Below, one piece after another: positions 3,648 through 49,814 of a DNA stretch of 64,000 nucleotides. The DNA is from Fistulifera solaris. Taxonomy: Eukaryota. The stretch lies in contig AP026144.1 of the NCBI GenBank assembly GCA_030295235.1, forward strand, positions 124,001 to 188,000. Direction: 5' to 3'. Under the pieces are notes generated by a model. That model was given only the letters and a program-made list of their open reading frames with translations, had not been told where the DNA came from and ran no database searches. Both the position numbers and the translations under genes were made by a program. How positions within the stretch are numbered: the first letter of the stretch is position 1; every line of letters begins with the position of its first letter.

Positions 3648-4401
3648 TCACGCAGCTGCAGCACCGCACGTTCGGGTCGAACTGATGGATCGGACGATCA
3701 ACATATTGTGGAAGTTCATGTATTCCTCCAACAGCGCTGTACTGAACGCAGATGCCACTTCTTCCATTTTCATCAAGGTCGCTGTTTCCTTTACACAGCG
3801 TAGAACGAGAATTTGCATGGCACGCTGCTGCATCTTCATGTATTCATCTACGATGTTAAAATCGTAAAGAAACGAGTCGACACTGGACAAAGACAGTGAC
3901 CATAACTCATGAGCACCCGCGAGTACTCCCCTCCAAGCTGGATTGCTTCGTGTCTGCGCTGATGTAGGCACTCGCCATGTTATTCAGCACTGTAGCAACC
4001 ACAACATCCACATGATACGCTTTCGTCGCAAAATCATGAGGCGCCGAAAATTGTATCAGGTAGCACTTGAAAGACATATTATCTTGCATTGCATTCTCGT
4101 CCAGCTCACTTCTTGCGATTGTAATGAGATCGTCGTCTGAAAGTATGAAAGGTGAAGCAAAAGCCCCGGTTTGTGCTGCACGAACTTGGTGCTGATTGAA
4201 GTTTGCGATATACTGATTTGCCTTGGACACAAAGGTATGCGCAGCATCCTCACAAGGGTGACCGCTTTTCAACAATGTTAGAGCATCGCAAAAGATTTCG
4301 ATTGCTTTTGCGTGACATCGTTTGTCAATAAGTGAAACAGCGATGTTATTTAAGGTCATCGCCATATTGAAGCAGGCTATGTCATCGCTTGTAGGTTGCA
4401 T
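3648..4401 (-). CDS. Diatom orphan helical (TPR-like) protein of the 'LNNxAVSL...AAAA-stop' family; frameshift near 3930
   Basis: N-terminal AMTLNNIAVSLI..AIEIFCDAL, internal VLNNMASAY, C-terminal TCGAAAA* in the adjacent frame (ORF 3648..3971); clear paralog at 26904-27680. Confidence 0.7.
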
Positions 4402-4771
4402 CGTCTCTTGATGATGGAGAAAACGAAGTTTTCTCGTCAGCTTCAGGTGAAGTGTCGGCCTTTGCTTCCAGTTACAGGAAAATTATAATGGGCTTGCTGA
4501 TTTGCCATTTGCCTCGCTTTTTTCTTCTTTTCTCCGCCCATGTACTTATTGCTTTTAGATTTGACTATTGACGTAGCACAAACCCAAGTCGAAAACCGAA
4601 CTGTTTCGATGAGTGCATGAGTGTGTATGAGGTACGAGTTTCTCGGAGTTATTTGAAAACACCGCAATCCATAAGAAGCAATACTGCAACTGCAGAAACC
4701 AACACGTACCGAACCCATCGCGGAGAAACACAAAGAAGAAAAACCATAAATTCACATGTATTGTTTTGCTT

Positions 4772-5236
4772 ATACCGTAATACCGTAGTCCAGTAGTCCA
4801 AGGTGCTGGCAGCTCGGAGTATACGCGATCTGAGATCTGAGAGCTGAGATCTTGCAATCCGAAATGGATACTGGATACTCGGACGACTACTACCCGGTTT
4901 ATGCATGATTAATGATTGGTAGGAAATCAGGAAATCCTATAAAAGTAACTCCGATATTCTCAATAGAGTAGTGTACCGACAGTCATCAGTCACCAGGTCA
5001 CCAGTCACCAGTCATCAGTCATGAGTGGTTGAGAGTGCGGTGGGGAGTGGGGAGGGAAAAGGGAAAAGTGATCCCATAAATCCATAACCTTCCACGTGCC
5101 ACGTAGATATTTACAGGTAGGTTCCACATGTAAGACCACCAGCGACAAGACAACGAAGAAAAAAGTAGCCAAGAGCCAAGAGTGTCAGCAGTCAGCGGTT
5201 AGCTCGTTAGCTCTCGGCTCTCGGCTATCGGCTATC
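4772..5236. repeat. Cluster of unrelated 7-8 bp tandem duplications
   Basis: For example gatctga x2 (4827), ggatact x2 (4866), aggaaatc x2 (4921), cagtca(c/t) x~6 (4980-5022), gtgggga x2 (5040), gggaaaa x2 (5054), agccaag x2 (5167), tcggct(c/a) x3 (5214). Confidence 0.85.
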
Positions 5237-5874
5237 ACGTACGGAGTGCAACCTACAAATAATAGGGATGTGACCTGGGCGAAGACAACTTTTTGGTTTT
5301 TGAGACTCGAGAATTCCGTCTCTAGAATATGTCGAAGCTTGCCTTTCGTCTCTAATCAGTTTGGAAGTAGCTACGGTACCACTTGTCAACCAGCAGGTAG
5401 CAGCATCGGCCATCGGCTATTTCACTTGTCAGACGCTAGACATGAGCCACATCAGGTTTATTATAAAGATGAGATCTGAGATGCTGTCAAATGCGAGTTT
5501 TCAAGTTATCGCTCTCTACCGACATATGGCTGTGACTATTGCTAGGTCAAAACTCGACTTGGACAACTTTAATTGTATGTGCCATGTGCCATCTTATATT
5601 TGATGCTTGATGCGTCGAGACTCGAGACGCTGATGATGGTTCAATGATACTGGTACAGTACAGGGTATCGTCGGATCCTTGGCTTACTTGCACCAAAGTA
5701 GAAGTGTCGGACCGGGCATTTTGCCTACAGAGTTCAGTACCGCACGCAAATCTCCGCCGATGCATTTGCACCTTCATCGCCCCACAGCGGTGCACATGCT
5801 ATTCGATTCGATTTTTGGCAATGATATGGTAATCTACCATCCATTGTAACGAGCATTGCTTCCCAAACCCAAAA

Positions 5875-7824
5875 ATGGAAACAAATTACCAATCGTTTGC
5901 TCCTCCTGATCCGTTGGAGTCGATTCCGTCATCGATTTCTCATTCGGGCTGTTCCGAACCAACGACGTCAACGGCTCAACATTCATATCGAGGCTTCTCT
6001 ACTTCAATTGCGGCTATTTTTCAAGATGAAGAGTATGCTGCGACTGATTGTTGTAGTTTGACGTGCTGTGGATTGATACAGTCGGATCGAGATCGCTTTT
6101 TAGTCACGGGCGTGCGACCTCCAACACCCTGTAAACGCATCAGTGTGCATTTTGTGTTGCCCCTGGTCCTCTTTTTTACCGCTGGATTACTGGCGGTGCA
6201 TATCCCGGAACATACATTCAATGAAATAGCCTGTACTGCTGTCGTATTGATGATTGTTGCTTATTTCATGGTACAATGCTACAAGGGAAGTCTAAAACGA
6301 AGGTTTGTGCGAAAGCAGTTGTTGCGGACAAAATATGAAATGATGCACGAAGGGCATTCCTCTGCATCATCGCAACATACACAAGATACAGAAGATGAAA
6401 ACAGCGATCACGGATACAAACCAGAACACCATTTGGGTCAACGGAAAAGCGATCTGCGGTGCGCTCATCCCTGTTGGATGATCGGATGTTATGCGCAAGA
6501 TCAAGCACACGATGACGACGAAGAAACGGACCTAAAACGACCGCAAACACTTTGTTCTTGGTTGTACTACTGGTGCTTTCCTTCCCCTCTCGCTGGATAT
6601 CATGTGCAAGTATGTGGAAGTTGTGCAATGGCACAAGAAGCTCGTGAACTCGCTCGCATTTTACCCCCTGCCGATCGACAAATTGATTACATTACCATGC
6701 AACCCTATCGGGACTATGCCAGCGGCAACAAACTATCCCAACTATCATGGCAATTGATTACATGGGCTTGTATATTTGTATTCGTCTTGATTCTTTGGTG
6801 CATGATAGGTCCCTGGTACATGAAACACGTCGTCATTGACAATCGGGCGAGTCGACATGTATTCGGGTGGATCGATCTGGGTATCTTCTTCTTGACATGG
6901 GGTGAGGCTATTGGATTGTTATTTGTATTTGCTAAATTTCTGAGCAAGCCAGAACCTTCACAACTCAGTGTAGACGCCATGATCAAGTTCTTTGCCGCTG
7001 GTTTTTGCTTGTCGACTTTCTTGGCGGTGGTCTGGCAAGTCTTTTTGGGCTTACTGGTGCAGACCATCATTGTATTAGCAATGGCTGTTGCGGGTGTGGA
7101 AGCAGTGGATTCTCCTGGAACCAACGGTTCCTCCTTCTTGAAAAATGCATTTGCACAGAACCCCTGGACCTTGATGAGTGCTTCCGATTTTATCGATTCA
7201 GTACAACACGATCATCCTATCTTTGCCTTGTTTTATATATTTTTTGCCACTTTCATTTTGGCTGCCATGGTGGAAGAACTGTGTAAGTATTACGGATATC
7301 GCATGTGCGAACACCCAGACTTGTTGTTCAACCAGAACGACAAATCCAAGCAAGCGCGCGGAGCTGCTATTACGATGGCCATGTTATCGACCGCCATGGG
7401 ATTTACTTGCTGTGAAAATTTGGTCTATGTCTTTGTCTACGGTGGCACAAGCACACAATTGGAATTTTCGATATTGTTCGCTCGGAGTTTGTTTCCTGTG
7501 CACCCATTAGCCGCTGCTCTACAAAGCTTGGGTGTTGTAGAACGAGATGTGGAGGCCCCCGCCACTACTCAAACGAAAAGCAAGCGATTCTGGGATTTTG
7601 TTATTCTCGGACCGGCCATCCTATTTCATGGGTTTTATGATTTCTTGATAGTGTGGCTGGATTATTTGGGGAGCGGGAATTGGACGCGACTGGAGTCAGT
7701 GGGGAGTTTTCTCGTTTTGTCAGCCTCATTAGCGTATTACATCAAGATGCGACGAAAGCAGCAGCAGCGATTGCAGCGACTAGACCGAGCCATGAATGCG
7801 ACTTCCACGACAAATGTAGTGTAA
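5875..7824 (+). CDS. PrsW-family intramembrane glutamic/metalloprotease with N-terminal PLAC8-like Cys-rich region
   Basis: PrsW motifs VEELCKY, GFTCCEN, PVH and HGFYD in a multi-TM C-terminal half; DCCSLTCCG and CAMAQEAREL resemble PLAC8 signatures. Confidence 0.8.
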   Translation: METNYQSFAPPDPLESIPSSISHSGCSEPTTSTAQHSYRGFSTSIAAIFQDEEYAATDCCSLTCCGLIQSDRDRFLVTGVRPPTPCKRISVHFVLPLVLFFTAGLLAVHIPEHTFNEIACTAVVLMIVAYFMVQCYKGSLKRRFVRKQLLRTKYEMMHEGHSSASSQHTQDTEDENSDHGYKPEHHLGQRKSDLRCAHPCWMIGCYAQDQAHDDDEETDLKRPQTLCSWLYYWCFPSPLAGYHVQVCGSCAMAQEARELARILPPADRQIDYITMQPYRDYASGNKLSQLSWQLITWACIFVFVLILWCMIGPWYMKHVVIDNRASRHVFGWIDLGIFFLTWGEAIGLLFVFAKFLSKPEPSQLSVDAMIKFFAAGFCLSTFLAVVWQVFLGLLVQTIIVLAMAVAGVEAVDSPGTNGSSFLKNAFAQNPWTLMSASDFIDSVQHDHPIFALFYIFFATFILAAMVEELCKYYGYRMCEHPDLLFNQNDKSKQARGAAITMAMLSTAMGFTCCENLVYVFVYGGTSTQLEFSILFARSLFPVHPLAAALQSLGVVERDVEAPATTQTKSKRFWDFVILGPAILFHGFYDFLIVWLDYLGSGNWTRLESVGSFLVLSASLAYYIKMRRKQQQRLQRLDRAMNATSTTNVV

Positions 7825-9728: not shown

Positions 9729-11550
9729 TCAACTAATAGCTCGAAGCTCCAAATCGCCTCCCATCGTGTAACCGTCAGACCAGGCAGCTCTTCGGTAATT
9801 CCTCTGACCACGTCGTTCCTTGAAAAGACAGAACGCCAACAAGGCGAAAAGGGTCGCACCTACAACCAATGGAATGACAGATGCAGCATTGTCAGAGTTC
9901 TCCGATGGAATAGTCGGCGAACGGGGGGATGTGTGCGGCGGTACAACATTGCGATGCGGCGCCAAAGTAGGTTGATGAGATGGATCCTTTGTTGGAACGG
10001 GTATTGGAGCAGGACTTGCAGTCGTGCGTGGTATAGCTGTTTCCGTAGGGAAATTCGTTTCCGAAGAAAAGGGTGCTAATGACGATCCTTCTTCTTCAAA
10101 GTACGAAGGGGTCGGTGATTTGGTATAACCTTCGTCAATGGTTGGTGCGTAAGTGGGAAAAGGACTGCTGTTCGGGTTCATTGTGACACCGTTGTAAATA
10201 TCTATATCCTCGTCATCCGCACAAAGAGGCGAGCCATCATTCTCGGCAATCCGTTTGGGAGCTAAACCAACCTTGTTCTCATGAATGTCAAAAGCAACAA
10301 AGTTGCTTAAGAAAAACTGTTCTCCTAGCAACCATACGGAAAGGTTCTCATCGGGAAGCAATGTCAACAGACACCATTGGTCAACGTTCGAATCCAGATC
10401 CTCGACTTCGACTACTTCGTCCGTACTAAGCGGAGTGGTCATTTCCGTCAAATAGTACGCAACTCCATCGATATCGAAAACCAAAGCATCGACGGGAGAA
10501 TCACATGGACCAAAGCCGAACTCAAAAACAGTAGTATCGCAACTGACACTCTTCATGGCCCCCGATGCTTCTCCACGTGTGCCGCAATACCATCCCGGTG
10601 TTTGCTTCAAAAACGCTGCAACGACCGAAGATGGACCCAGAGAAAGGCCGCACTACTGTCTAACACCGCCGTTTCGACGAAGGGTAACTCGACGCCACCG
10701 ACCCGCGATGACTCGACTTTCAAGGCCCATAAAATGTCGACACCCATTTCGAGCGGTTGCACATCATGCCAGACAAGGCAGCCGGAATACAGAGTGCGAT
10801 CAATTCCTCCCAGTAGTATCTCGGATGATAATTCATCGCCCGTGAGATGCAATGCAAATATGGGACGAGGCAATGCATCGTGGAGCTGTTTAATGACCGT
10901 AGCAAAGTGTTCGACTTGACCTTCTCCGGTCAAGCCTTCATTGAGCGGACCCAAACCAAGATACCCATCCCACTGATTCGGACATGCCTGATCATAGTAT
11001 GATTCCATTTTATTAATGACGGCAAAGCCCTGTTCGGGTATTTGGATTTCATCGGTGAACGAAACTCGATCTTTGTACAGTAGCCCCGCTACCTGCAAAT
11101 TGAGGATGAAGAAAAGAAGAAAGAGTAATAAAGCAGTTAAAAAGACAAATCAACAAAATGTTCTTCAAACGGATCTGCGAACGTACTTGGTCTCCTCCAG
11201 TGACGGATTCGTACATGTTCTCCAAAGCGTTGTCGAACAAGGGCGTCGCGTTTGTTGCATCATATCGATTCGGTGTTTCTATGCAATCAACACAATCTTG
11301 GGATGTCACCCACAAATCCGTTGATGTCGTATCAACAACTAATTGAAATGGTTGTGTCCCGATGGTCACACTGACCGTGTAGAGCGGCATATCGTCATCG
11401 CACGGCTCGAGCGGCAGGGCATCGGCGTTGGCTTGTGCCTGGCGACGGCTCTTTTGATTCTTGCGTGCTCGAATCATCGTTTCTATCGTTTCTTTTCCAT
11501 CTGTTGTCAAAGAGGTCTTTGACCTCGAAAGAGAAAAGTCTTGTCATGGT
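9729..11550 (-). CDS. Pepsin-like (A1) aspartic protease with Pro/Ser/Thr stalk and C-terminal TM helix; intron 11093-11186, frameshift near 10640, start uncertain
   Basis: YTVSVTIGTQPFQLVVDTTSTDLWV, DGYLGLG, VLDSS and WLLGEQF..VAFDIHENKVGLA; the GT..AG intron joins GDQ to VAG in frame; TM segment VIPLVVGATLFALLAFCLF. Confidence 0.82.
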
Positions 11551-12136
11551 GAGATTTTTATATTGACTTGTATTGCTTCCCAGTGGCTCCGCAGTTATTG
11601 TTTGTTGTAGTGCGAAATGCGACGATTGTACCAGTAGCAGGCGCCTGGACGATATTTATTGTGTCTAACGTGCGTCCACGGAAAATCTGGGCAAGTGGTG
11701 CCTTCACGTACTCAGAAAATCTGTGGATGTGAAAATGTTCATGACTGAAAATTACTAGCGGCCTGTCTGATTAAAGTCTTCGATGCGAAATGCGAGTCAA
11801 AACGATTGTTTGTAGGTGTCTCGTGACTGAAAAACATTCGTGACGAGTTTCCACATTATTTTTAGCGCTTTGGTCAAAAGTCATGGAAGGGAAATCACCA
11901 GTAAAACGACGTTAAAACGAACAGTAAATTCCATATCGCTTCTCAACGGTAATAATTGATACAGAGGGCACTTATTAAATCATGAAACGACTATCCAATA
12001 GCAAGACCGGCCGGCGGATAGCACTTAGGAACTCACAAAGTGATGTGACAACACTTTGATAAACCGCAACGCACAACACACTAAAAAGCAACAGTCTCAT
12101 CATTCATTATTTGTACGGAGGATTATTTAAAACACA

Positions 12137-17229: not shown

Positions 17230-17822
17230 GAGTTTGATTTTATTCACACACACACACAGAAACAATCTGACGGTAGTACCAGTAATGCGATAGTACCCAG
17301 GTAAGTTTGCTTTGAAGGACGACTTTTTGGAAAGACGAAGACAAAAGGAATTGATGAAAAGAGGGAGAAAAAAAAACTACATGGTTACCTGGTACCGGTA
17401 GTCTTCCACGTGGATGACAATCGACAAGGAATGAAGGATTGGGATGTGACAATTGACAATTGCATGTCGGACGACAGTCAGATAGTCGCGGTGCGCTGTG
17501 ATCGAAGAAGAATATCATCAATCATCATCATCATCGGCGGAGTGCCTACTTGTCATTGGATACACATAACCGTTTCCCCTATCTATCCATACCAACGGAC
17601 AAATTTTAAGTCCGAATTGGTCCGCGAAAACAGAAAAGGGCGACCCTCTATTGGCGTACGAAGTAAATAAAAAATAGGTGGCAGAAGGAACAATCGTGTG
17701 AGCGGCAGAAACAAAAGAGCGTTGCGCAAAACAGAGAAATAGACATCTCACATCTCACATACCCCTAGAGTATTCATTCTTTTATAGATCCAAACAACAA
17801 CAAAAGAAAAAGAAAACAAATC

Positions 17823-24784: not shown

Positions 24785-25306
24785 TATTCGATCCAGATAG
24801 TTAATAGGTTAAAATCTTCCGAATACTTTTCTTTTGTTGTCCATTTTGTGTCTCACTTCAATTGTTGTTTTCTGTCCCGTTATTTTTGGTGGACTTGAGT
24901 GAACAGGTGATCGCACGACAGACGAACCGAAGTCACGAATTAATGAGTCGAAGAAACGGCGTTAAAATTCTGCCTCGTCGTGGACGCTACGTAGAATCTT
25001 GTAATGGAACGTCCTTCCCGACTAGTTCATGGAAGTCGCACCAGAGATTCGCCCTGCTCATAGGTTACTCATCAAAATACTGAAATTGACACTGGACGTA
25101 ACTCAGACATATATTCATAAATCTATGTGAAAGTGAATGCAAATGACTGTGCTCTGGCTTCCACGACGATCAACCAAGTGATCACATCAGATTAAAGGCA
25201 TGGCTACACGTAAAAGGATCTAAAACTACAGCAGAAAAAAAGCCAGGAGAATTCAATCACTTTATTAGACCCATTAGTTCCCTGACTCATACTCCGTATA
25301 AAATTT

Positions 25307-26285: not shown

Positions 26286-26903
26286 TATTTCAGATTCTTG
26301 TTTTGATTATTCAAAGTAGAAATAAGTTCGTCTTTCCCTCTTCTTCGTCTCGCTTCCGTACCTCGTATTCGATTTGCTGGTCGAGTTAAAACAGCGAAAG
26401 GTATTGGGGAAACAAAACGCACCACATCCACTCATCACTGCGCGTCTAACGCGCATTCGCCATTGGATTCCACGTGGAACATGAAACGTCGAAATTTATT
26501 GTCATTTTGAAGAACGGAAAATCAAACGCGCTACTTGCTACTTTATGTCAATCACGGATCAGCGCTAAAGCGGTAAAGGGTCGGCCGGGGTCACGAGACG
26601 GGGTATGTCCGCTGTCCGCTGTCCAATCAAGGCAAATCATTCCACTCTTCGGTCCAGAGCGAAAGATAATCCGTGTTCGGGTTTTCACTAGGCCACGGCA
26701 AAACAAAACGGGATTGCCAACGCACGACTTCTTCTCCGCGATACCTCACTTTCGCCGCCGTGAAAGCGAACGGCTTGCTAGAGGGTGAGCGACTAAGAGA
26801 ACTTAGCTTTTACCGATATCAGTGTCAACATTTTACATTTTAACGAGTCGCCTATGCGTTATGAGTATTTTTACAATTCAACTAGCCAACGAGAAACATC
26901 ACA

Positions 26904-27680
26904 TTTAGGCAGCAGCTGCGGCTGCTTGGCCGGCAAGGTTCGATAAAGAGAGTCCATTTTTATGAAACTCTCCAGGACATCTATCATTGTTGAATGGTAC
27001 GTTCTTGCATCAGGTAGAAAGCCGAGAACTGTTGAAATCCGATCCAAGTTTTGAAGAATGATGACAGATAGGGGAAATAATCGCACTGTCAGCTCGTCGT
27101 ACTCAATCTTGAAATTCTTGGATGAGATTGCAACCAAATTGGAACACGCCAACTGAAATAGCTTGTATGCCGCTTCCCAGAGATCAAGAGCTCGGTGTGA
27201 GTCAGTCTCGATGATTGCTGCACTGATGTAAGCGTTCCCGAAATTATTGAGGAGCAATGCTGCAATGAGCCCACCCATGTGCTTCTGAATTTCCGCTTCA
27301 TTTTTTGGGATAAGTTCAATGCGAATCAGGAAAAGCTTCAGTGTCTGTGAACTGTTAATGGCATCGTGCACAATGTTGCGCACGGACTCAGCGATATCGT
27401 CTTCGGTTATTACTTTGACTTCGACACCTTCACAGGCTGGATGCGACACCTTCTTGAATTGACTCTCTGAAAGCATCTGGTCGGCTTTATGAACTTTTTT
27501 TCGAGCTTCTGCTTCACGGTGAGTGCATGGTTCCTCGTTTGCATTTCTCAGGACTTGAATTCCGTCCGCGAAAGTTTCCATGGCTTCATTCAAATGCCCC
27601 TTCGATAGAAGCGACACTGCATTATTATTCAATGCAATCGCACAGGAGTAAGACCACCCAATATTGCTTGGCTTTTCCAT
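26904..27680 (-). CDS. Second 'LNNxAVSL...AAAAA-stop' orphan family member; 1-bp shift near 26940
   Basis: AIALNNNAVSLL..AMETFADGI and LLNNFGNAYISA align with 3648-4401; a shift near the end gives LAGQAAAAA*, matching the paralog's poly-Ala C terminus. Confidence 0.75.
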
Positions 27681-28066
27681 TGTCTGGTGTTATAATTTGT
27701 ATTATTTTTTGGAGGGATGATTAGTCGTTTGGTTTGAAAAATGAAAAAAGTTTGAATTTGTCAACATGAAAAAAAGGTTCTCGGAGTGTCGCTTTTCAAT
27801 CATTCGTTACTCGTTGCCGGACTTCGCTTAAGGTCGCCAGTAGCAAATCCCGAAAATGTCTCGATTTTCGGACCCAGCAACTTCACTATAACGTTTTTAG
27901 TAAAATCTACATCCGGAGAATGCAATAACATCGGAGCTGCAACATTCCCTAGAAATTATCGAGGCCAAAGAAAATCCGTAGTTAGTGAGTGCTTTAAATG
28001 ACCAGGTGACTACACTTTTCACTGGTACAACTTTCTCTTTTCAGTACATTCTGTCTTACAATGCAG

Positions 28067-28743
28067 TTTGACGTTTGACCTGTTAAGCCAACGGTCAGTT
28101 TTCTATTTTCTATGATGATGTTCTGTGTACTGTGTCAGATTTCATCCTAATTACAAGGTACAAGGTACTGATTTCTTTGTTCTCCTGACTCCTGATCACC
28201 TGCCTAAGCCTGAAGCCTGAGTTCTCTGTTTTTGAGCGACACACGCGACACACATTACACATCACACATGCACATGCAATTGTTATTTTGGGCATTGGGC
28301 TTTTGTTTTTTGGCTTCGGCTATGGCTTCTCGTCTTCCCTTCCTCTTGTGGCTTGCGGCTTGCGGTCTTGCGGTTGCTGATAGACATTAGACATAGAGAA
28401 TGACGAAGGCCTGCAACTCAGAACTGAGTGCAGGGATATTTTCTCTTAGAGTCCCCAGGATATAAGCCCACATGCCCACATGGTTCCTCCAAAGGTTTCG
28501 CCGGTCGAGTGTCGAGTTGCTTACACGATTGTTTTTCTGTTGAATGTTGAATTGCGTATTGCGGGTTACAAGTTACGTGTTATGTGTTATGTGTTGTAAC
28601 TGGTGACTGGTGACGACATTTCTGCGGAGTAAGGAGTAAGTAACGAGTAATTAACGATCTGTTCCGTTAAGGCCGAAAGAGTTTAATGTTTAATGACCCG
28701 GGTCGATTTGCGATGACTGTTCCCGTCGGCCGTCGGCCGTCGG
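28067..28743. repeat. Second cluster of unrelated 7-8 bp tandem duplications
   Basis: acaaggt x2 (28153), ctcctga x2 (28182), tagacat x2 (28381), gcccacat x2 (28466), gtcgagt x2 (28504), tgttgaa x2 (28538), gtgtt(a/g)t x3 (28577), ctggtga x2 (28600), ggagtaa x2 (28626), gtttaat x2 (28681), ccgtcgg x3 (28723). Confidence 0.88.
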
Positions 28744-29205
28744 AGTCGAACTGCGTTCACAGCTCTCACACGGTCGCGGACTGCGGTCGAGTCGTCCGAG
28801 TCACGAGATCTATTTACTTGGAACAAATCATTTCAAGTAATTTCAATTCGTTTTTTCGAATTAAGTATCGAAGTTAGCGGGCCACTTGCAAAATCCCTTG
28901 GCGAATAGAAATGTTAACACGGTGTAAACAGTGTTCTGTGGCTTGACTTGGCTTGTGCTTGTCTCCGACGACGGGCGGCAATTGAAAGACGACTTACAGA
29001 CGTCGATGAACGATGAATGAACAAACGAAGGAAATGAAATCGAATAGTTTAAAATAACACAATAATCACAATTACGGAAAAAGTCGTTCGTCATATGCAT
29101 TAAAAGGTTATTAATATCATCTCAAAACGATTCGATATGATACACGATCTTACTTGAAGTAAAAGCTTCTGCTTGTCAGTTTGCGAGATGTAGACAACAG
29201 CGAAA

Positions 29206-31666
29206 TCAACTCCTCGGCGAAAGGTCTCCCACCGCATCACATTCATTCATGGAGTAAATGTTGTGAGCTACCCGAGGAGGATTCAATTCTTTGTTTCCGC
29301 CAGAATTCTCTGTGCTGGTCGACGTTTCCGTGAGCGCCGTGGACACTCGCCAAACAACATGATTCTTGGGGCTATAACTAGGTGTATCCACTTCAGGGGG
29401 GATACTGCTGCGCGTCGCTGCGAACGGTATTTTCGGCTCTGAACGATTCCATTTTTACCAAATCCTTCGTTACGAGTTCCTCGAGAGCCTTCAAACCAGT
29501 TTGGTTGTTAAACTCGTGCATTTCGGAAGCGTATAACCAATGGGTGTTTGGTTGGTCTTTGCCTTTCATTTCAATCAATCCGCGATCTTCAATACAAACA
29601 GCTCGGGTGCACTCATTTCGAGTTCCTTTCGCGTCGTGTCGGAACAGTGTACCTTACCTGCTTGGCCAGTACTTTCATGACGAGCACTAGTGTTGATAGT
29701 GTCACCGAAAACACAATAACATGGGTTGGTCACACTACACCACTTGCGCAAGATCCGGAATGAATCCCGATACGCAATCGAATAGGCTTTCCGTCCATAT
29801 GAGACTTAACTAGCCCGCAACAATGACTGATGGCAAGAGCGAAATCAACGACGTTGCGAGCATGGCTTTTGTCACTATCGGAAAGGCCACTGCAGCAGAT
29901 CGTTTCCACTTTGAAGAAATTGAACTTCATGGCCAAGCAATCCATGATGCAGTAGAGCTGATTGAGCATGTTGATGACCTCCCACGGAAAGATTTGGTCG
30001 CAGATGCTTGTAAAGCCCGCGTTGTCTGAAAAGAAGACGGTGACATGGTTGTGAACACGCGTCTCGACACTCGGCACATTCGCAATCCTCGGGCAGAAGC
30101 GACTCGATTAGTTTCTTTTCCTTTGCAGGGACTTGCTGAGCTTCTCCACTTTTAACGCGTCGTTCATTTGACCACTGAGATGCTCGCGAAGAAACACACC
30201 ATCACGGTGCGATCCATGCACAGGAAGATCACTCAGGGTCAGCACCATGTCGCGTAGCTCGTTCAAGTTGTTGACGTCTGGGCACAGGATAACGATCCAG
30301 TCTGCTGGCTTGCGATCATCGAGACGAATAGCGCTGCCTTTGAATACGAGCTTTTGAGCGGATGGCATTGTCGGCTTGACTGTTAAGGCTTGATCCTCTT
30401 GCTTTCGGAGCCAGATAGAGCTCCAGACGGCTGCCGCGCGTTTTTCAACGTCGAAGACCTGTGCAGCAGGCATGCCAAGAAGATCGCTCTCGTACGTATT
30501 CAAAAGCTTGGGTAGCGCTTTACCGACTTGAAGAATATGCAAATCAGGGCCCAAAGTAATGTGGTAGGGAAACAATTTTCGGTAACCCTTGCCGACAATC
30601 CATCATTTTCGTTTGGAATCGTTGAAGAATAGCTTGTCGTGATGGACGTGTCTAAAGATTGATCGCTAAGCGATGCTCTCCGATACACTTTTTGTTGTTC
30701 AAAGTCAGTGACGGTGCTGTTTACTTTGCTCATGGGATCTTTCTCGCTCAATGCATCTATGGATGTGTTCACACCGCTGTTTTCGAGGGCCATGGGCATC
30801 GTTTGAAAACGTCACGCTGGTCACGGGGCACGTGTATGTCGTTTTGGGATGACGTTCCTTGTGGCTTTTGACGTAAAGGTCAGGCGAAGCACTGTACACG
30901 ACACCAGTGAAAGGGCACTTCACTTCAGTGGGACGGTTGTTTTCTCCGTAACAACTCTTTTCCGTGTGAGCTTGTACATGTTGAGAGGATCTTTGGTTGT
31001 GATTCTGCAACTGTTTGTAGCAAAGGCAAATTGTGGCGGTATGAGACTATGTGTATAGTTGGTGCTCGGCATCGTTGTAACCATTTTGAAACGTACCTGG
31101 TGACTTTTGCACCGTTTACTCCTTGAGAAGTCAGTTTGCCCAAAGACGATATCAAGATCTAATTCAGTCTGTGCCACACACCTGACAATACCTTTGGCAA
31201 TGGAGAGCCAAATAATTGCCTGTTGACGACAAATAGTACAAGATAATTGATTCGTCGTGATCGTCCATCTCCACCCAAAACTTCGGCATCGTCATCTTGT
31301 TGGGAAATGTCGTTTGTAGGTGGGAATGTATGGCGTTAATATTCGTCAACCAGTCTTTACATGTCGATCCTTAACACCAAGGAGGTTTTCGTAGCCTTCA
31401 CCAGCAACATATGGTGCCCAGAACTCACCAAGCGCTTCAAGGACTTGATCAACGGTGAGTCCGGAGACTTCACTTGCAGCAACAACGAGGTCGATAGTTC
31501 TCTGATCCGAATAGCTTTTGAGTTTCAAGAATCCTTCATCGTCTGCGAAGCGTTTCGCCTTTGACTTGACAGTGTGCCATCCTTCCAACCCGAACTTTGT
31601 TGATAAGTCCCTAAACGCTTTAGCGCTGACCGCTGACTCAGGCATTCCAAACTTGTTCTCTCTCAT
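29206..31666 (-). pseudogene. Decayed soluble guanylyl cyclase (H-NOX + HNOBA/PAS + coiled coil + class III cyclase)
   Basis: H-NOX fragments (YSDQRTIDLV..LEALGEFW..GYENLL; NAIHSHL), HNOBA (FPYHITLGPDLHILQVG; LSDLPVH), cyclase (VTVFFSD..FT; FKVET; RIGIHSG; YCVFGDTINTSARHESTG). At least six frameshifts, loss of the IGDAY segment and a break in the GVVG motif. Confidence 0.8.
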
Positions 31667-32802
31667 TCTAGTTTTGATTTTTCACGCATGAGGCCCGATG
31701 GCGGCATCTTTAATATTGGAAACATCAAGACATTTTGGTCCTCCGCACTTTATGCATATCTTCTGTTTCGATCCTAAATTCTATAATCCAAAAGGCCCAA
31801 GCAATCAGAATGCGTTATCCAAAAGCGACTTTTAAAGCGCCTGTACGCGATCCGGGAGGGCGGGTTTAAAAAATGGCGATCCATGGTCATTTTTGGATCA
31901 AGCTATTGTTGCATAAACCAGCGATTTTTACATCCTGTGGATTGAAATGAGGATGAATAGTAGTTTATGTGATGACTTCGTACGCAGCGCTCAAGAAAAG
32001 CTTTGTGGAAAGGCAGTGGCGATATCTTTTCGGATTTGGCCGGGTTGCCCTTACTTTTTCTCGGCTTGTAACTTGCCTCAAAAATCCGCAATATCTCTAA
32101 TTTTTGAATGAAGAGCTGTCAATCGACAATGACCGTCGGAAAGCGTGCATTTGGCCTCGATTCCGAAAGCCATAGAGCGAGTTTCGCGTACAAAGTCAAT
32201 ACTCAGTTTGGTCCCAACAATGATATATCAAAGAAAACATAGATGTTTATTGGTAATAGAAATAAATATTCATTAATCGTTACTATTGACTCAAGTTTAT
32301 TTGAATCTAAGCGGTTCTGTCGCTCGTGCGAAGTTGATGATCCGACGCAAGGAGAAAGAAAATTTTGAAGCGAAAATCGATTGGCAAGAATGAGACGATA
32401 AAGAAGCCTTTTCTTGTGAGAACGTTTGAAGCGAAGCAAGATGCTTTCGAACATTGTCACAGAATGGCGTCAGTATGTTTCTCGGCTTTCGGAGAGCTTT
32501 TGTCGGCAATGTTTTCTCTGTCGACAGTGAATTTTCGGTTGTTGGCAAGACCTAAAAGCTGATAAATCGGCACTCATACCCTCAAGGATGGCCAAGACAC
32601 TGCTCATTTATAAACCGCATATTCATAAGAAAGAGTGTTGAGCTGAAAAACAGCAAAAGTTACGCGGAATTCGATTGAAAACGCTAGTTTGATGTCGATG
32701 GCGACGAAAGAAATTTATTGAGGAACGAAGGGTTTGTGCGAACGACGAAACGCGAAAATTCACAAAACGCGAAAATTTATTGAGAATGGTACCAGTATGG
32801 TG

Positions 32803-32971
32803 ACGTACCCAGAAAATATGGGAGTGTGGTGTTTTCACGTACCCAGAAAATATGGGGGTGTGGTGTTTTCACATACCCAGAAAATATGGGGGTGTGGTGT
32901 TTTCACATACCCAGAAAATATGGGGGTGTGGTGTTTTCACATACCCAGAAAATATGGGGGTGTGGTGTTTG
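32803..32971 (+). repeat. 34-bp minisatellite, about 5 copies, bracketed by a ~28-bp direct repeat
   Basis: ac(g/a)tacccagaaaatatggg(a/g)gtgtggtgttttc starts at 32803, 32837, 32871, 32905 and 32939; gtttgtgcgaacgacgaaacgcgaaaatt occurs at about 32732 and 32967. Confidence 0.95.
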
Positions 32972-33337
32972 TGCGAACGACGAAACGCGAAAATTTATTA
33001 GAAAGACGCCTGTTGGCGTCTGCCCATGCTCGCTTCGCTCGCGAGCAGTAAAAATCCAAAAAGGTCCACCAGCATGGAGAAATCACTAAACATGGAATGG
33101 TTGCCCAATTTTTTGCGCGAAGAATAAACCACAATGATTCAGTTTCCTTCAATTTTTGTGATTCAGTGACCCCGTTCTCGATAAAGTTCTTGCAATTGTA
33201 CTTCCTTATACGGAATGAACAAACCCTTAGTTGACGTTAACTTGACCAGCAATTAAAACAACTTCCTGGTATCGGGAACCTACTAATCGTGTCGGAAGTA
33301 AACGCATACAAGTATTTCCCTACAACTGCCGACCCAA

Positions 33338-34612
33338 ATGACTTCTCTTCGATCCGCCCTTGTTCTTCTTTTGCCGATGCCGTTGCTCGGAAGCAAGGTA
33401 CTGGAATGGGAAGCCGCAACAGCCTATCCAGGACCGGCCAGACATCATCCTATAACCTTTGCGAACGAAACACACGGCTTCTTGTTGACCGGATCGACCA
33501 TCGATCAGACGGCTACTTCGGACTTTTATATGTACGATGCAGCGAACGACGTGTGGACGGATTTATCCAACCAAACGGGAAGTGCCTTTCCGGGTACACC
33601 TCGTGGTTACGCCTACGGTGTTGTGTTGAATGTACCGCTTCATTCGAAAGCTTATCTGGGCTTGGGAGCCGGCGAAACGGGGCTATTGAATGATTTCTGG
33701 GAATTCGACATGGTGACTCACGTTTGGAAGCAATTAGCAAATATGCCTATTGAAGGTCGACGACATCCTGCCATGAATGCTGTACGTAAAACAAATCAAG
33801 GCAATCGAATGGAAGATACCGTGGAACAATGGGAAATCCATGTCGGTTTGGGAGACGACAGTGGAGGAAATTTAAACGATTGGTGGATTTACGATATTGC
33901 CACAGATTCATGGGAAGCTGCGTCCGATCTTCCCGCTTCACCACGTCATCATCCGTTTCATTTTTCGCTCGGTGCTTACAGTTACACAGGATTGGGGCAT
34001 TCCAGTCAAGGCATCGAACGAGATTGGTTTCGCATGGAGAATCGTAAATGGGTAGCCGAGCCTAGTTTTGAGAGTTTCAACGAAGAAGATGTGTTAGTCA
34101 CAACGGAAGCTCGTGTAGCGGGAACACAATTTTCCATGGAATTTAATGGCAATTCGTCAAGCTCGCCTACTCAAGATGATTCGGAAACCGTTCTATTATC
34201 TGGTTCGATGGGCTTTGTGCTCAGTGGTGATGGCGACGACCACCGATCCATGACGGAAGGTGAATTTCATGCGTTTGATCCAAGTACCGGTCGATGGCAT
34301 ATCCTTCCACAGCATCCTGGCAGGTCACGCTGGGCTCCAGGCTCCTTTGTGATACGAGGATCGCCTGTAGTTTATTTCACCAGTGGATATGATCGAACGT
34401 CTCAAGAATTGTTCAATGATGTATGGCGGATAGATGTAACTCCGTTATTTGTTGAAGGTCCAAGTAATACCACAGAAACAGCACCGGTTAGCACGCCGTC
34501 AAATACTGGAGGAATGGAACCTACATCCAGTACTTTGATACGGAATGTGCGGTCATTTTGCCTGGTCTCTTCTTTTCTCTTGACAATTTATCTTGCAAGT
34601 GCAGGGTTTTAA
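33338..34612 (+). CDS. Secreted/surface kelch-repeat beta-propeller protein, possible GPI anchor
   Basis: Signal peptide; kelch repeats (RHHP..GFLLTG..DFYMYD..W; AYLGLG..NDFWEFD..W; NDWWIYD..W); Ser/Thr spacer and hydrophobic C terminus. Confidence 0.82.
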   Translation: MTSLRSALVLLLPMPLLGSKVLEWEAATAYPGPARHHPITFANETHGFLLTGSTIDQTATSDFYMYDAANDVWTDLSNQTGSAFPGTPRGYAYGVVLNVPLHSKAYLGLGAGETGLLNDFWEFDMVTHVWKQLANMPIEGRRHPAMNAVRKTNQGNRMEDTVEQWEIHVGLGDDSGGNLNDWWIYDIATDSWEAASDLPASPRHHPFHFSLGAYSYTGLGHSSQGIERDWFRMENRKWVAEPSFESFNEEDVLVTTEARVAGTQFSMEFNGNSSSSPTQDDSETVLLSGSMGFVLSGDGDDHRSMTEGEFHAFDPSTGRWHILPQHPGRSRWAPGSFVIRGSPVVYFTSGYDRTSQELFNDVWRIDVTPLFVEGPSNTTETAPVSTPSNTGGMEPTSSTLIRNVRSFCLVSSFLLTIYLASAGF

Positions 34613-47228: not shown

Positions 47229-47789
47229 AGCAATGGGGGGATAAATTTTTCGCATCCAAGAGCCTAACGTGAATCAATTTTTCGAAGCGAAGAGAGGCGA
47301 GAAACAAAACGCCTTTTTCTGGTCATGAGAGGCTACTCAGCATGATATCCTTCAATCGACCCAAAGATCAGTGCAAATATGCATTGAGTTGAAAGTATTT
47401 GGATCAAAAGCATTCAACTGTAAGTTTGTTTTGAATATAGAATATTTTACAATTTTTCATGAACCCTCATACAAGGTAATTTGGGCGGACGGTTGTTGGC
47501 GGAAGTGCTGAGGTATTTTGTCATGGGAGGACAAGCAAAGACAGTTATGAATCAGGTGCATGTGAGACATCGACGTAAATAATGTCCGGTGCTATAGAAA
47601 CGTTGTTGCGAATGAATGGTCACTCGACATAACCATTTTACCAAGATTTTTATATGCAATTGGTGCTCCTAGATGCTGACATCAATAAAGTAAACCTGAA
47701 AGTAACTTGTGCTCATGTCCCATCCCTCAAATCTTTCGATACATTCTATGTTCGTTTAAGTGACTTCTACACACATTCCAACACAAATG

Positions 47790-49120
47790 GTTTCCAAAAC
47801 AATCTGCGAAACGAACGTATTGTAGGCAGCACTGCCGCTTCAAAAAGTATGCTAAACGATCTTCTGGTAGCTGCATGGTCGCTCCAAAAAATATGTATTC
47901 ATGACTGAAGTGCAGTCGTGGCGAAAAGCGGTCAACACTATTATCTATAGTAAATACGCAGACAACGTTTCGCAAAGCTTTTCAAGCCTATTTCACTGTA
48001 ATTACGACAAAAGGTTTCAAAAAAATCTGCGAAACGATCTTCTGGTAGCAGCATGGTCGCTCCAAAAATATGTATTCATGACTGAAGTGCAGTCGTGGCG
48101 AAAAACGGTCAACACTATTATCTATAGTAAATACGCAGACAACGTTTCGCAAGGCTCTTCGACATACAAATATTAAGTCGTGTAGTGCAAACGCCGCCAA
48201 AGCCTATTTCACTGCAATAACGACAAAAGGTTTCAAAAAAATCTGCGAAACGATCTTGTTGTAGGCAGCATGGTCGCTCCAAGAAATATGTATTCATGAC
48301 TGAAGTGCAGTCGTGGCGAAAAACGGTCAACACTATTATCTATAGTAAATTCGCAGACAACGTTTCGCAAGGCTTTTTGACATACAAATATTAAGTCGTG
48401 TAGTGCAAACGCCGCCAAAGCCTATTTCACTGCAATAACGACAAAAGGTTTCAAAAAAAATCTGCGAAACGATCTTGTTGTAGGCAGCATTGCCGCTCCA
48501 AGAAATATGTATTCATGACTGAAGTGCAGTCGTGGCGAAAAGCGGTCAACACTATTATCTATAGTAAATACGCAGACAACGTTTCGCAAGGCTCTTCAAC
48601 ATACAAATATTAAGTCGTGTAGTGCAAACGCCGCCAAAGCCTATTTCACTGCAATAACGACAAAAGGTTTCAAAAAAATCTGCGAAACGATCTTGTTGTA
48701 GGCAGCATGGTCGCTCCAAGAAATATGTATTCATGACTGAAGTGCAGTCGTGGCGAAAAACGGTCAACACTATTATCTATAGTAAATTCGCAGACAACGT
48801 TTCGCAAGGCTTTTTGACATACAAATATTAAGTCGTGTAGTGCAAACGCCGCCAAAGCCTATTTCACTGCAATAACGACAAAAGGTTTCAAAAAAATCTG
48901 CGAAACGATCTTGTTGTAGGCAGCATTGCCGCTCCAAGAAATATGTATTCATGACTGAAGTGCAGTCGTGGCGAAAAGCGGTCAACACTATTATCTATAG
49001 TAAATACGCAGACAACGTTTCGCAAAGCTTTTCAAGCCTATTTCACTGTAATTACGACAAAAGGTTTCAAAAAAATCTGCGAAACGATCTTCTGGTAGCA
49101 GCATGGTCGCTCCAAAAAAT
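47790..49120 (+). repeat. ~218-bp satellite array, about 6 units, with alternating (dimeric) internal variants and identical short outer units
   Basis: atgactgaagtgcagtcgtggcgaaaa starts at 47901, 48078, 48296, 48515, 48733 and 48951 (spacings 177, 218, 219, 218, 218). Confidence 0.95.
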
Positions 49121-49814
49121 AATATGCAAACGCATCTATATTTTCCTAATTGGGTTGGTTCTACATTTTTTATTGCAAATATCGATCGCCTTGAGCTAAA
49201 AATATGATTTGCGACACAACAAAAATATTTTCGAATCAAAGTCGCCTGTCGCCAGATGTCTGCATGGACGATGAACTGACAAATTATATATCAGGAAAGC
49301 GTCTCAATTTACTTCGCTCGATTAAAGAAAAACTCATACCAGTCTATAGGGTTCCATCGACATCGATTTTTTCACCAATCAGCGATTCTCCTCCATTTTT
49401 GGGGGGCTCGACCTCTACAGGAACGACGGTTTTGGTGTCAAGAAACAATTCGTCGTTGCATATCAGCAAAGCACGATCAATATATGCATTCGGTTCATAG
49501 CGAGAAAGCAAGTTCTTTGCGAAACGCAATCAAGAAAGGTCTTTGCTGCTTAATGGCGAATGGCGATAGAGGAGAAAGATCATGGAAAATGACATCAAAC
49601 GGCGCGAAAACGAGTTCTTTCGACGTCTGACTGTCGCTCGCTTCGCTCACGACTTTTATACAGAGTAATTTCCAATTGGTCCACCAGCATGGTATTACGA
49701 ACAATAATTGCCCACATTTCGGTGGTTGGCATCTTCATCCTATTTCTCTTTGCTTTGTCGTGTTACCTGGTACCAGGAACAAGAAGCAAAACATACCATA
49801 TTATCCTATTCATT

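Follow-up and report, generated by a model that had tools for sequence, protein, structure and literature searches.

Clustered 7-bp tandem doublets in diatom non-coding DNA look like an undescribed mutation signature

Short tandem duplications of unrelated words, most of them exactly 7 bp long, are scattered through the non-coding DNA of a 64-kb stretch of the Fistulifera solaris genome (the window, meaning the whole stretch of DNA that was analysed) and are crowded into two of its spacers, referred to here as hotspots 1 and 2. These doublets look like an undescribed mutation signature, and not like a device aimed at one gene family. They are probably the non-directed scars of fill-in at breaks staggered by about 7 nt, with transposon insertion and excision as the leading source. 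Doublets of the same kind also occur in the non-coding DNA of other diatoms, at a lower density than in the hotspots.

Fistulifera solaris is an allodiploid pennate diatom, and the window is assigned to its subgenome L because the 269-aa protein encoded beside hotspot 2 matches FisN_7Lh062, with residues 1-248 identical (248/252 aligned residues). The homeolog FisN_7Hh062 is 95% identical to the same protein, and a large protein collection holds only four relatives of it, at 94, 87, 79 and 49% identity. Eukaryotic domains found in the window by a Pfam scan are Mad3/BUB1, mitochondrial carrier, PP4R3, Sas10 and TTI1. The genes and repeat clusters that matter for what follows are listed below, with strand where there is one and the basis of the assignment in brackets where one was recorded.

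3907..4401, minus strand: 164-aa paralog of the 269-aa gene (BLASTP)
4500..5628: hotspot 1, with 14 exact 7-bp doublets and 5 exact 8-bp doublets (exact-repeat count)
5875..7824, plus strand: PrsW-like protease gene, divergent from hotspot 1 (Pfam scan)
17447..17760: three 7-bp doublets lying singly between the DnaJ and LRR genes, assigned to the background process
26530..26842: three more 7-bp doublets lying singly, in the spacer downstream of the 269-aa gene
26871..27680, minus strand: 269-aa gene for a lineage-specific TPR-like protein (Pfam scan and protein comparison)
27681..28065: nearly doublet-free stretch of about 385 bp beside the ATG of the 269-aa gene (exact-repeat count)
28066..28743: hotspot 2 core, 18 exact tandem doublets of unrelated words (script count of exact repeats)
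28939..29017: hotspot 2 tail, a period-5/6 repeat at 28939-28962 and a 7-bp doublet at 29004-29017 (repeat scan)
29730..31666, minus strand: intron-split gene with HNOB, HNOBA and guanylate-cyclase domains (Pfam; covered by read runs X2 and X3)

Hotspot 1 lies in a spacer bounded by the 164-aa paralog and the divergent PrsW-like protease gene, and hotspot 2 in a head-to-tail spacer, in which the 3' end of the guanylate-cyclase gene faces the 5' end of the 269-aa gene. The 164-aa and 269-aa proteins are 29% identical across 157 aa (BLASTP, E 3e-12), so that the two genes adjoining the hotspots do belong to one family, as the preliminary description of this DNA had proposed, as distant paralogs; they are the only members of the TPR-like family within the window. 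Judged by its sequence, the guanylate-cyclase gene would encode a soluble enzyme of the NO-sensor type in a diatom. Elsewhere in the window, an aspartyl protease gene at 9729-11510 on the minus strand is spread over three overlapping ORFs in different frames, and introns are likely.

Census, length and anatomy of the doublets

An exact doublet is defined here as an exact tandem repeat with at least two full copies, as counted by script. The core of hotspot 2 is composed of 14 doublets of 7 bp (starting at 28066, 28099, 28152, 28182, 28206, 28350, 28381, 28504, 28538, 28577, 28599, 28626, 28681 and 28723), two of 8 bp (28359 and 28466), one of 9 bp (28236) and one of 6 bp (28265), a number about 300 times that expected by chance. 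The repeat at 28723 reaches three copies (CCGTCGG x3), and four further period-7 doublets, at 28119, 28249, 28287 and 28415, carry a single mismatch. Compared with the non-coding background of the window, 0.83 per kb, the presence of 14 doublets in 678 bp has a Poisson P of 2e-15. Over the slightly longer interval 28050-29030, the counts for periods 3 to 12 are 8, 2, 1, 2, 15, 2, 1, 0, 0 and 0, against expectations, from period 3 on, of 10.75, 3.03, 0.83, 0.22, 0.09, 0.03 and then 0. The preliminary description had listed eleven duplicated words in this cluster, and every one of them is an exact tandem doublet where it had been placed. It had also put the start of the cluster about 400 bp upstream of position 27680; the measured distance is 386 bp, one low-complexity doublet (TGAAAAA x2 at 27735) aside. 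That doublet is the single one in 27681-28065, a stretch that is probably the constrained core promoter and 5' UTR of the 269-aa gene.

Both clusters are recovered by Tandem Repeats Finder, and a contig built independently from public reads matches 27770-29501 with 0 differing letters; thus hotspot 2 is not an error of this assembly. The duplications of hotspot 2 have added roughly 150 bp, or about 10%, to a spacer of about 1.5 kb.

Hotspot 1, within the spacer 4402-5874, is likewise improbable as a product of the window background (Poisson P 6e-11). Its existence had been reported in the preliminary description and is borne out by the count, although the claim that it starts some 370 bp upstream of the paralog does not hold, because the first doublet lies at 4500 and not at 4772. 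The words duplicated at the two loci arose independently, as had also been suggested. The one word said to be shared is indeed shared, ACTGGTG being a reverse-complement rotation of CAGTCAC; it is not counted as significant, since by our own estimate (some 18 x 18 pairs of words, with about 1170 distinct classes of 7-mers) about 0.3 such coincidences are expected by chance. Mutated units have in places been duplicated anew, as in GCTCTCG x2 followed by GCTATCG x2 in hotspot 1, and an imperfect array of about 6 CAGTCAY units occupies 4980-5021.

The length of the duplications is sharply fixed at 7 bp, 8 bp being a minor class. In the whole window, with chance levels taken from 20 dinucleotide-preserving shuffles, exact doublets of period 7 number 47 against 4.45 expected. 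The figures are 7 vs 0.85 for period 8 and 3 vs 0.15 for period 9, and the shorter periods are close to chance or moderately above it, at 27 vs 14.05 for period 6, 78 vs 51.7 for period 5 and 203 vs 189.7 for period 4. Exact recurrence of 7-mers behaves in the same manner, with 48 instances at offset 7 vs 2.6 expected, and 11 and 13 at offsets 8 and 9 vs about 3. Within hotspots 1 and 2, respectively, the counts are 1 and 2 for period 6, 14 and 15 for period 7, 5 and 2 for period 8, and 0 and 1 for period 9; periods 3-5 are at chance in both.

The flanks of the doublets are close to random. Among the 47 period-7 doublets of the window, the match extends past 7 bases by 0, 1, 2, 3, and 4 or more bases in 21, 9, 9, 3 and 5 cases, where random flanks predict 26.3, 13.3, 5.0, 1.7 and 0.7, and the 21 doublets in the first class have no flanking match at all; thus microhomology is not required. 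The slightly heavy tail of extra matches comes from a handful of units that underwent a second round of copying. In the window there is no excess of inverted 6-8-mers next to each other, and snap-back or templated-insertion repair was rejected as the origin on this ground. Nor is there a clear target motif among the 52 units with unambiguous borders, which display weak, non-significant trends only; this holds for nTnnnnAn, the target pattern of hAT elements, for which a weak, non-significant trend is the most that these units offer. Doublets overlap at 4772/4785, 5198/5210/5221 and 28350/28359, and from these overlaps and the re-duplicated mutated units it follows that neighbouring doublets are separate, successive events.

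A dead gene broken by frameshifts was considered as a source of the clusters and rejected. When one copy of each doublet is removed by script, no longer ORF emerges, the longest being 81 aa in hotspot 2 and 126 aa in hotspot 1. A search of 27000-33400 and 3800-6000 against Rfam found no family in either interval.

Distribution, spread and age

The doublets are restricted to non-coding DNA: 46 of the 47 period-7 doublets lie outside long ORFs, in 23.2 kb that make up 36% of the window (binomial P 1.6e-19). The spacer 27681-30107 contains 16 of them, nearly all within 28066-29017, and the 19.3 kb of ORF-free DNA outside the two hotspot spacers contains another 16, or 0.83 per kb, which is 12 times chance. 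These background doublets adjoin DnaJ, LRR, TPR and other unrelated genes, and the isolated cases singled out beforehand, at 17447, 17743, 26606, 37202 and 62193, are all present. Intergenic length alone, a possibility raised in the preliminary description, does not explain the hotspots, because other stretches without ORFs, of 2762, 2962, 1029 and 1162 bp, contain one doublet at most.

Other repeats occur in the window as well. A satellite of 218-bp units (about 4.8 copies, with a higher-order period of 437) at 47783-49121 fills most of a 3-kb gene-free stretch, where there is one 7-bp doublet. A 34-bp unit is repeated 4.9 times at 98% identity at 32806-32970 and is 71% alike to a double unit 21 kb away, at 11672-11739; the two are possibly members of a small dispersed repeat family.

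The spread of the signature beyond F. solaris was followed in 47 metagenome loci around relatives of Mad3/BUB1 (284.6 kb, 30-57% protein identity), collected by a metagenome scan with a Mad3/BUB1 alignment, which gave a closest locus of only 44-57% identity and no orthologous spacer. None of the 47 loci encodes a member of the TPR-like family (best tblastn E 0.13). One locus, L013, duplicates L014 and was dropped, and masking of stop-to-stop ORFs of at least 150 aa in the remaining 46 left 56,255 bases. In this ORF-free DNA, from loci not every one of which is proven to be diatom, doublets of periods 5 to 10 number 70, 30, 37, 6, 1 and 0, against 38.9, 11.7, 3.6, 0.9, 0.1 and 0.1 expected. The density, 0.66 per kb, is like that of the window background, and the ratio of 7-bp to 8-bp doublets is 37:6, compared with 45:7 in the window under the same mask. 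Inclusion of coding DNA blurs the spike, with 66 vs 20.2 at period 7 and 19 vs 5.4 at period 8 over the whole loci. The doublets lie between ORFs and form small clusters, such as those upstream of a hybrid histidine kinase gene in L011 (8111-8201) and in L012 (4335-4579), where the neighbours are an ADC-like gene and Mad3. L010, L021 and L031 have no period-7 doublets. L013 and L014, from the same species and 99.5% identical over 4778 bp, show one 4-bp gap and no 7-bp polymorphism at this small divergence.

In L007, 4 of the 5 period-7 hits fall in a family of CTAG-rich repeats, which may be a different phenomenon. The spacers of this pennate-diatom-type contig at 11280-11710 and 12140-12290 are full of CTAG-rich words such as TAGCTAG and TACTAG. 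Among them is a 110-bp piece that ends in perfect 16-bp inverted repeats and has a 7-bp direct repeat on its flanks; this could be either a small mobile element or a microsatellite of palindromic type.

The mismatch classes also reveal an age structure. If doublets were born at a constant rate and decayed by point mutation, those with 0, 1 and 2 mismatches would be expected in about equal numbers. In the 46 other loci, the three classes number 37, 77 and 275 against 3.8, 51.3 and 280.6 expected (sd 1.2, 5.8 and 14), an excess of about 33 perfect and about 26 one-mismatch doublets, with nil within noise in the two-mismatch class. The window background gives 15, 26 and 108 against 1.2, 16.1 and 90, with excesses of about 14, 10 and 18. 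Because the one-mismatch excess is of the same order as the perfect excess in both sets, the two-mismatch class being too noisy to use, the background fits steady birth and decay. Hotspot 2 has a different profile, 16, 5 and 8 against 0.1, 1.7 and 8.7, in which almost all doublets are perfect, and it is therefore a young burst, with an age of about 0.013 substitutions per site. For hotspot 1, with 11, 9 and 11 against 0.1, 0.5 and 7.8, the corresponding figure is about 0.05.

The public reads come from three runs of one study on one strain, none of them recorded as RNA; run X1 behaves like DNA of the same strain, and runs X2 and X3 cover genes only, and their missing cover over 27764-29179 was left out of the evidence. 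In run X1, a second copy, 80-95% alike and taken to be the homeolog, adds depth from 29180 on and not across 27764-29179, from which it follows that the homeologous spacer is unalignable at 80% and has turned over fast. The homeolog contig provides joints only (27951 to 28011 and 28041 to 28168), without letters.

From the background, 7-bp duplications are estimated to arise, per base, at about 0.008 times the rate of point substitution (an excess of 33 perfect doublets, multiplied by 14 and divided by 56,255 bases). A study on Phaeodactylum gives an indel-to-substitution ratio of 0.033 (1.58e-11 / 4.77e-10; PMC6604790). If that ratio carries over, a step from one species to another, the 7-bp class would amount to about a quarter of the indel rate.

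Candidate sources of the doublets

On the reading favoured here, the two strands would be opened about 7 nt apart in each event (sometimes 8, rarely 6 or 9), and the single-stranded overhangs would be filled in and the ends rejoined, leaving 7 bases copied in tandem. This break-and-fill chemistry, which we infer, would be the same as that which makes target-site duplications; the enzyme, and the reason why these two spacers are hot, are likewise put forward conditionally. The process would run at a low steady rate in diatom non-coding DNA, with many events occasionally falling within a few hundred bases, and selection would purge doublets from coding DNA, since an extra 7 bp puts a gene out of frame. 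Hotspot 2 would then record a burst that struck locally and recently, in the middle of its spacer, where constraint is lacking.

The leading source of the breaks would be repeated visits by a cut-and-paste DNA transposon that departs cleanly, and such an element, taken on its own, is a serious candidate whose chances fall somewhat short of even. Two variants are conceivable: an element whose target duplication is 8 bp, one base of which is usually lost when the element leaves, and an element whose target duplication is 7 bp. In the former case, an 8-bp duplication that had lost either junction base would read as a perfect 7-bp doublet, and the lost base would make 7 the most frequent length, accompanied by 8 and 6. 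Such elements prefer open DNA upstream of genes, jump locally and act in bursts. A hAT element excised from potato CDF1 leaves behind 7 inserted bp that form part of a direct repeat (PMC12344491), target duplications of 7 bp are made by Galileo, a member of the P superfamily (PMC2775673), and a Phaeodactylum MULE, the sole diatom DNA transposon found reported as moving, makes 9-bp duplications (bioRxiv 10.1101/2023.01.02.522487). A MULE-type source is at odds with the rarity of period-9 doublets here.

Several observations count against a transposon. The junctions of the doublets are almost always perfect, whereas footprints of hairpin-type excision usually have altered junction bases, and junction-altered period-8 footprints are not enriched (period-8 runs with exactly 7 matches number 4 vs about 3 extrapolated from shorter runs). 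About 18 fixed events in 680 bp would be extreme for any known local hopping. The position of both hotspots upstream of the only two family members in the window is, in addition, not predicted by a purely random process. The 64-kb window contains no transposon with terminal inverted repeats (TIRs) flanked by a 7-9-bp duplication, and a scan of 45 of its ORFs against Pfam found no transposase domain; the search for TIR elements in the 46 other loci gave 3 weak candidates, one of them inside the CTAG-rich repeat, vs 0 in one shuffle.

A separate repeat of the window deserves mention because it might point to a transposon responsible for the doublets. At 24955-25015, depth in run X1 reaches 2063, vs about 27 around it, and dozens of contigs diverge at the left edge, with joints that go back and inverted continuations; from these features the segment is identified as a degenerate member of a high-copy repeat family whose ends are inverted, and it is the single member in the window. 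Other copies of this repeat have CAGGG just outside the position of the left edge of the window copy, and this motif is reminiscent of hAT-type termini.

A close second source for the same break is a nuclease or recombinase that opens the strands in this way without any insertion. Thus a host nuclease, or a topoisomerase-like or tyrosine-recombinase-type enzyme, might make abortive double-strand breaks with a 7-nt 5' overhang in places to which it is recruited, the hotspots being such places, and fill-in followed by end joining would yield the doublet with no mobile element involved. This is a tentative possibility and a rather unlikely one, and the credit it receives is a share of that given to break-and-fill as a whole, not an addition to it. 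The evidence from length, microhomology and motif is the same as for the favoured reading, perfect junctions would be the simplest product of fill-in and blunt ligation, and no transposon is seen in the window. The similar 7:8 ratios of the two data sets, moreover, suggest one conserved machine rather than various transposon families. Precedents for parts of the scheme are known: type II topoisomerase mutants yield 2-4-bp duplications by fill-in of staggered breaks, and tyrosine recombinases cut with a 6-8-bp stagger. To our knowledge, however, the enzymes with a 6-8-nt stagger are all sequence-specific, unlike the motif-free doublets, and no candidate enzyme has been identified for breaks that we infer here. 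Replication slippage, in which the doublets would be the first step in the birth of heptanucleotide microsatellites, is improbable. Units that have gone past two copies (CCGTCGG at 28723, the CAGTCAY array, and GTGTTAT x2.7) and the five doublets with 4 or more extra bases are in its favour, but slippage needs a pre-existing repeat, which the doublets lacking any flanking match do not offer; 46 of the 47 stay below three copies, their words are unrelated, and slippage or microhomology predicts a smooth fall with length where chance levels at 3-5 and a spike at 7 are seen.

The preliminary description had suggested a dedicated system that diversifies the long promoters of the TPR-like family and thereby causes variation in expression, and this is now very unlikely. 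The coincidence on which it was built is real: two hotspots out of two lie upstream of the only two members, at similar distances from the ATG, the density of the hotspots is not explained by spacer length, and with about 30 genes in the window the chance of the coincidence would, by our estimate, be well under 1% had the family been named beforehand. The coincidence was picked post hoc, however, and only two members were examined. Against an aim at this family stand the 16 further doublets in ordinary spacers beside unrelated genes and the same spike and small clusters in 46 other diatom-type loci with no family member. Each hotspot is, in addition, shared with a second neighbour, hotspot 1 being equally upstream of the PrsW-like gene and hotspot 2 equally downstream of the guanylate-cyclase gene. 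The roughly 385 bp beside the ATG, where the tuning of a promoter would be expected, are spared, and the Pfam scan of 45 window ORFs yields no reverse transcriptase, recombinase or transposase that could serve a dedicated mutagenesis system nearby. Least credible of all is a functional role as cis-elements that selection maintains, paired binding sites for instance. The doublets do lie in upstream regions, but the words all differ and share no motif, the mismatch classes of the background fit neutral decay, conservation of the spacer does not extend even to the homeolog, and Rfam has no match to it.

Relation to known systems and significance

Scars left by staggered-break fill-in, the origin considered most probable here, resemble several known products without coinciding with any of them. 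The target-site duplications and footprints of transposons (8 bp for hAT elements, 7 bp for the P superfamily and Galileo) are likewise tandem copies of fixed length, of any word and without microhomology, and a fixed, family-typical duplication length is seen here, with period 7 dominant in the hotspots. The differences are that no element, transposase or occupied site is seen, that the junctions are nearly always perfect, that about 18 scars lie in 680 bp, and that the signature appears in many diatoms at once. Filled-in enzyme breaks, as in topoisomerase II mutants or the 1-bp templated insertions at Cas9 cuts, share the perfect copy, a length equal to the stagger and the independence from microhomology, but we know of no non-specific eukaryotic enzyme with a 7-nt stagger. 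The heptanucleotide simple sequence repeats (SSRs) of bacteria (cyanobacterial STRR, 'long SSR') are similar in period and in non-coding location; they form long arrays in which one unit recurs genome-wide, whereas the diatom words are unrelated, present in two copies each, and found in a eukaryote. Of the traits expected of an SSR, a copy number of at least three is reached by only 1 of the 47 exact period-7 repeats (3.0 copies), and one unit at many loci is absent, a single word being common to the two hotspots. In human DNA, most short insertions are tandem duplications of neighbouring bases, as here, although their spectrum falls smoothly and has no spike at 7.

A full-text literature search, supplements excluded, found no description of 7-bp tandem doublets in diatoms, and those parts of PMC10288648, PMC12130899, PMC8147415 and PMC8329260 that term look-up reaches hold nothing relevant. 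It is conceivable, and offered here as a hypothesis with less than even prospects, that diatoms possess an undescribed conserved machine, either host-encoded or belonging to one widespread lineage of mobile elements, that breaks DNA with a 7-nt stagger, accounts for a large share of short non-coding insertions (roughly a quarter of the indel rate, if the figures carry over) and occasionally acts in local bursts that rebuild the promoter-distal part of a spacer within about 1% divergence. On a bolder but still conceivable view, certain genes, those of the TPR-like family for instance, would attract the bursts.

For annotation, dense 7-bp doublets upstream of a gene are no evidence of a regulatory device, and the proportion of perfect to decayed doublets is a simple marker with which local bursts can be dated. 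If the interpretation is correct, a major group of algae would bear a new mutational signature in the form of a sharp, enzyme-like spike of 7-bp insertions, and this spike would point to an unknown nuclease or to a very active, cleanly excising transposon. It would also explain part of the growth and turnover of intergenic DNA in diatoms.
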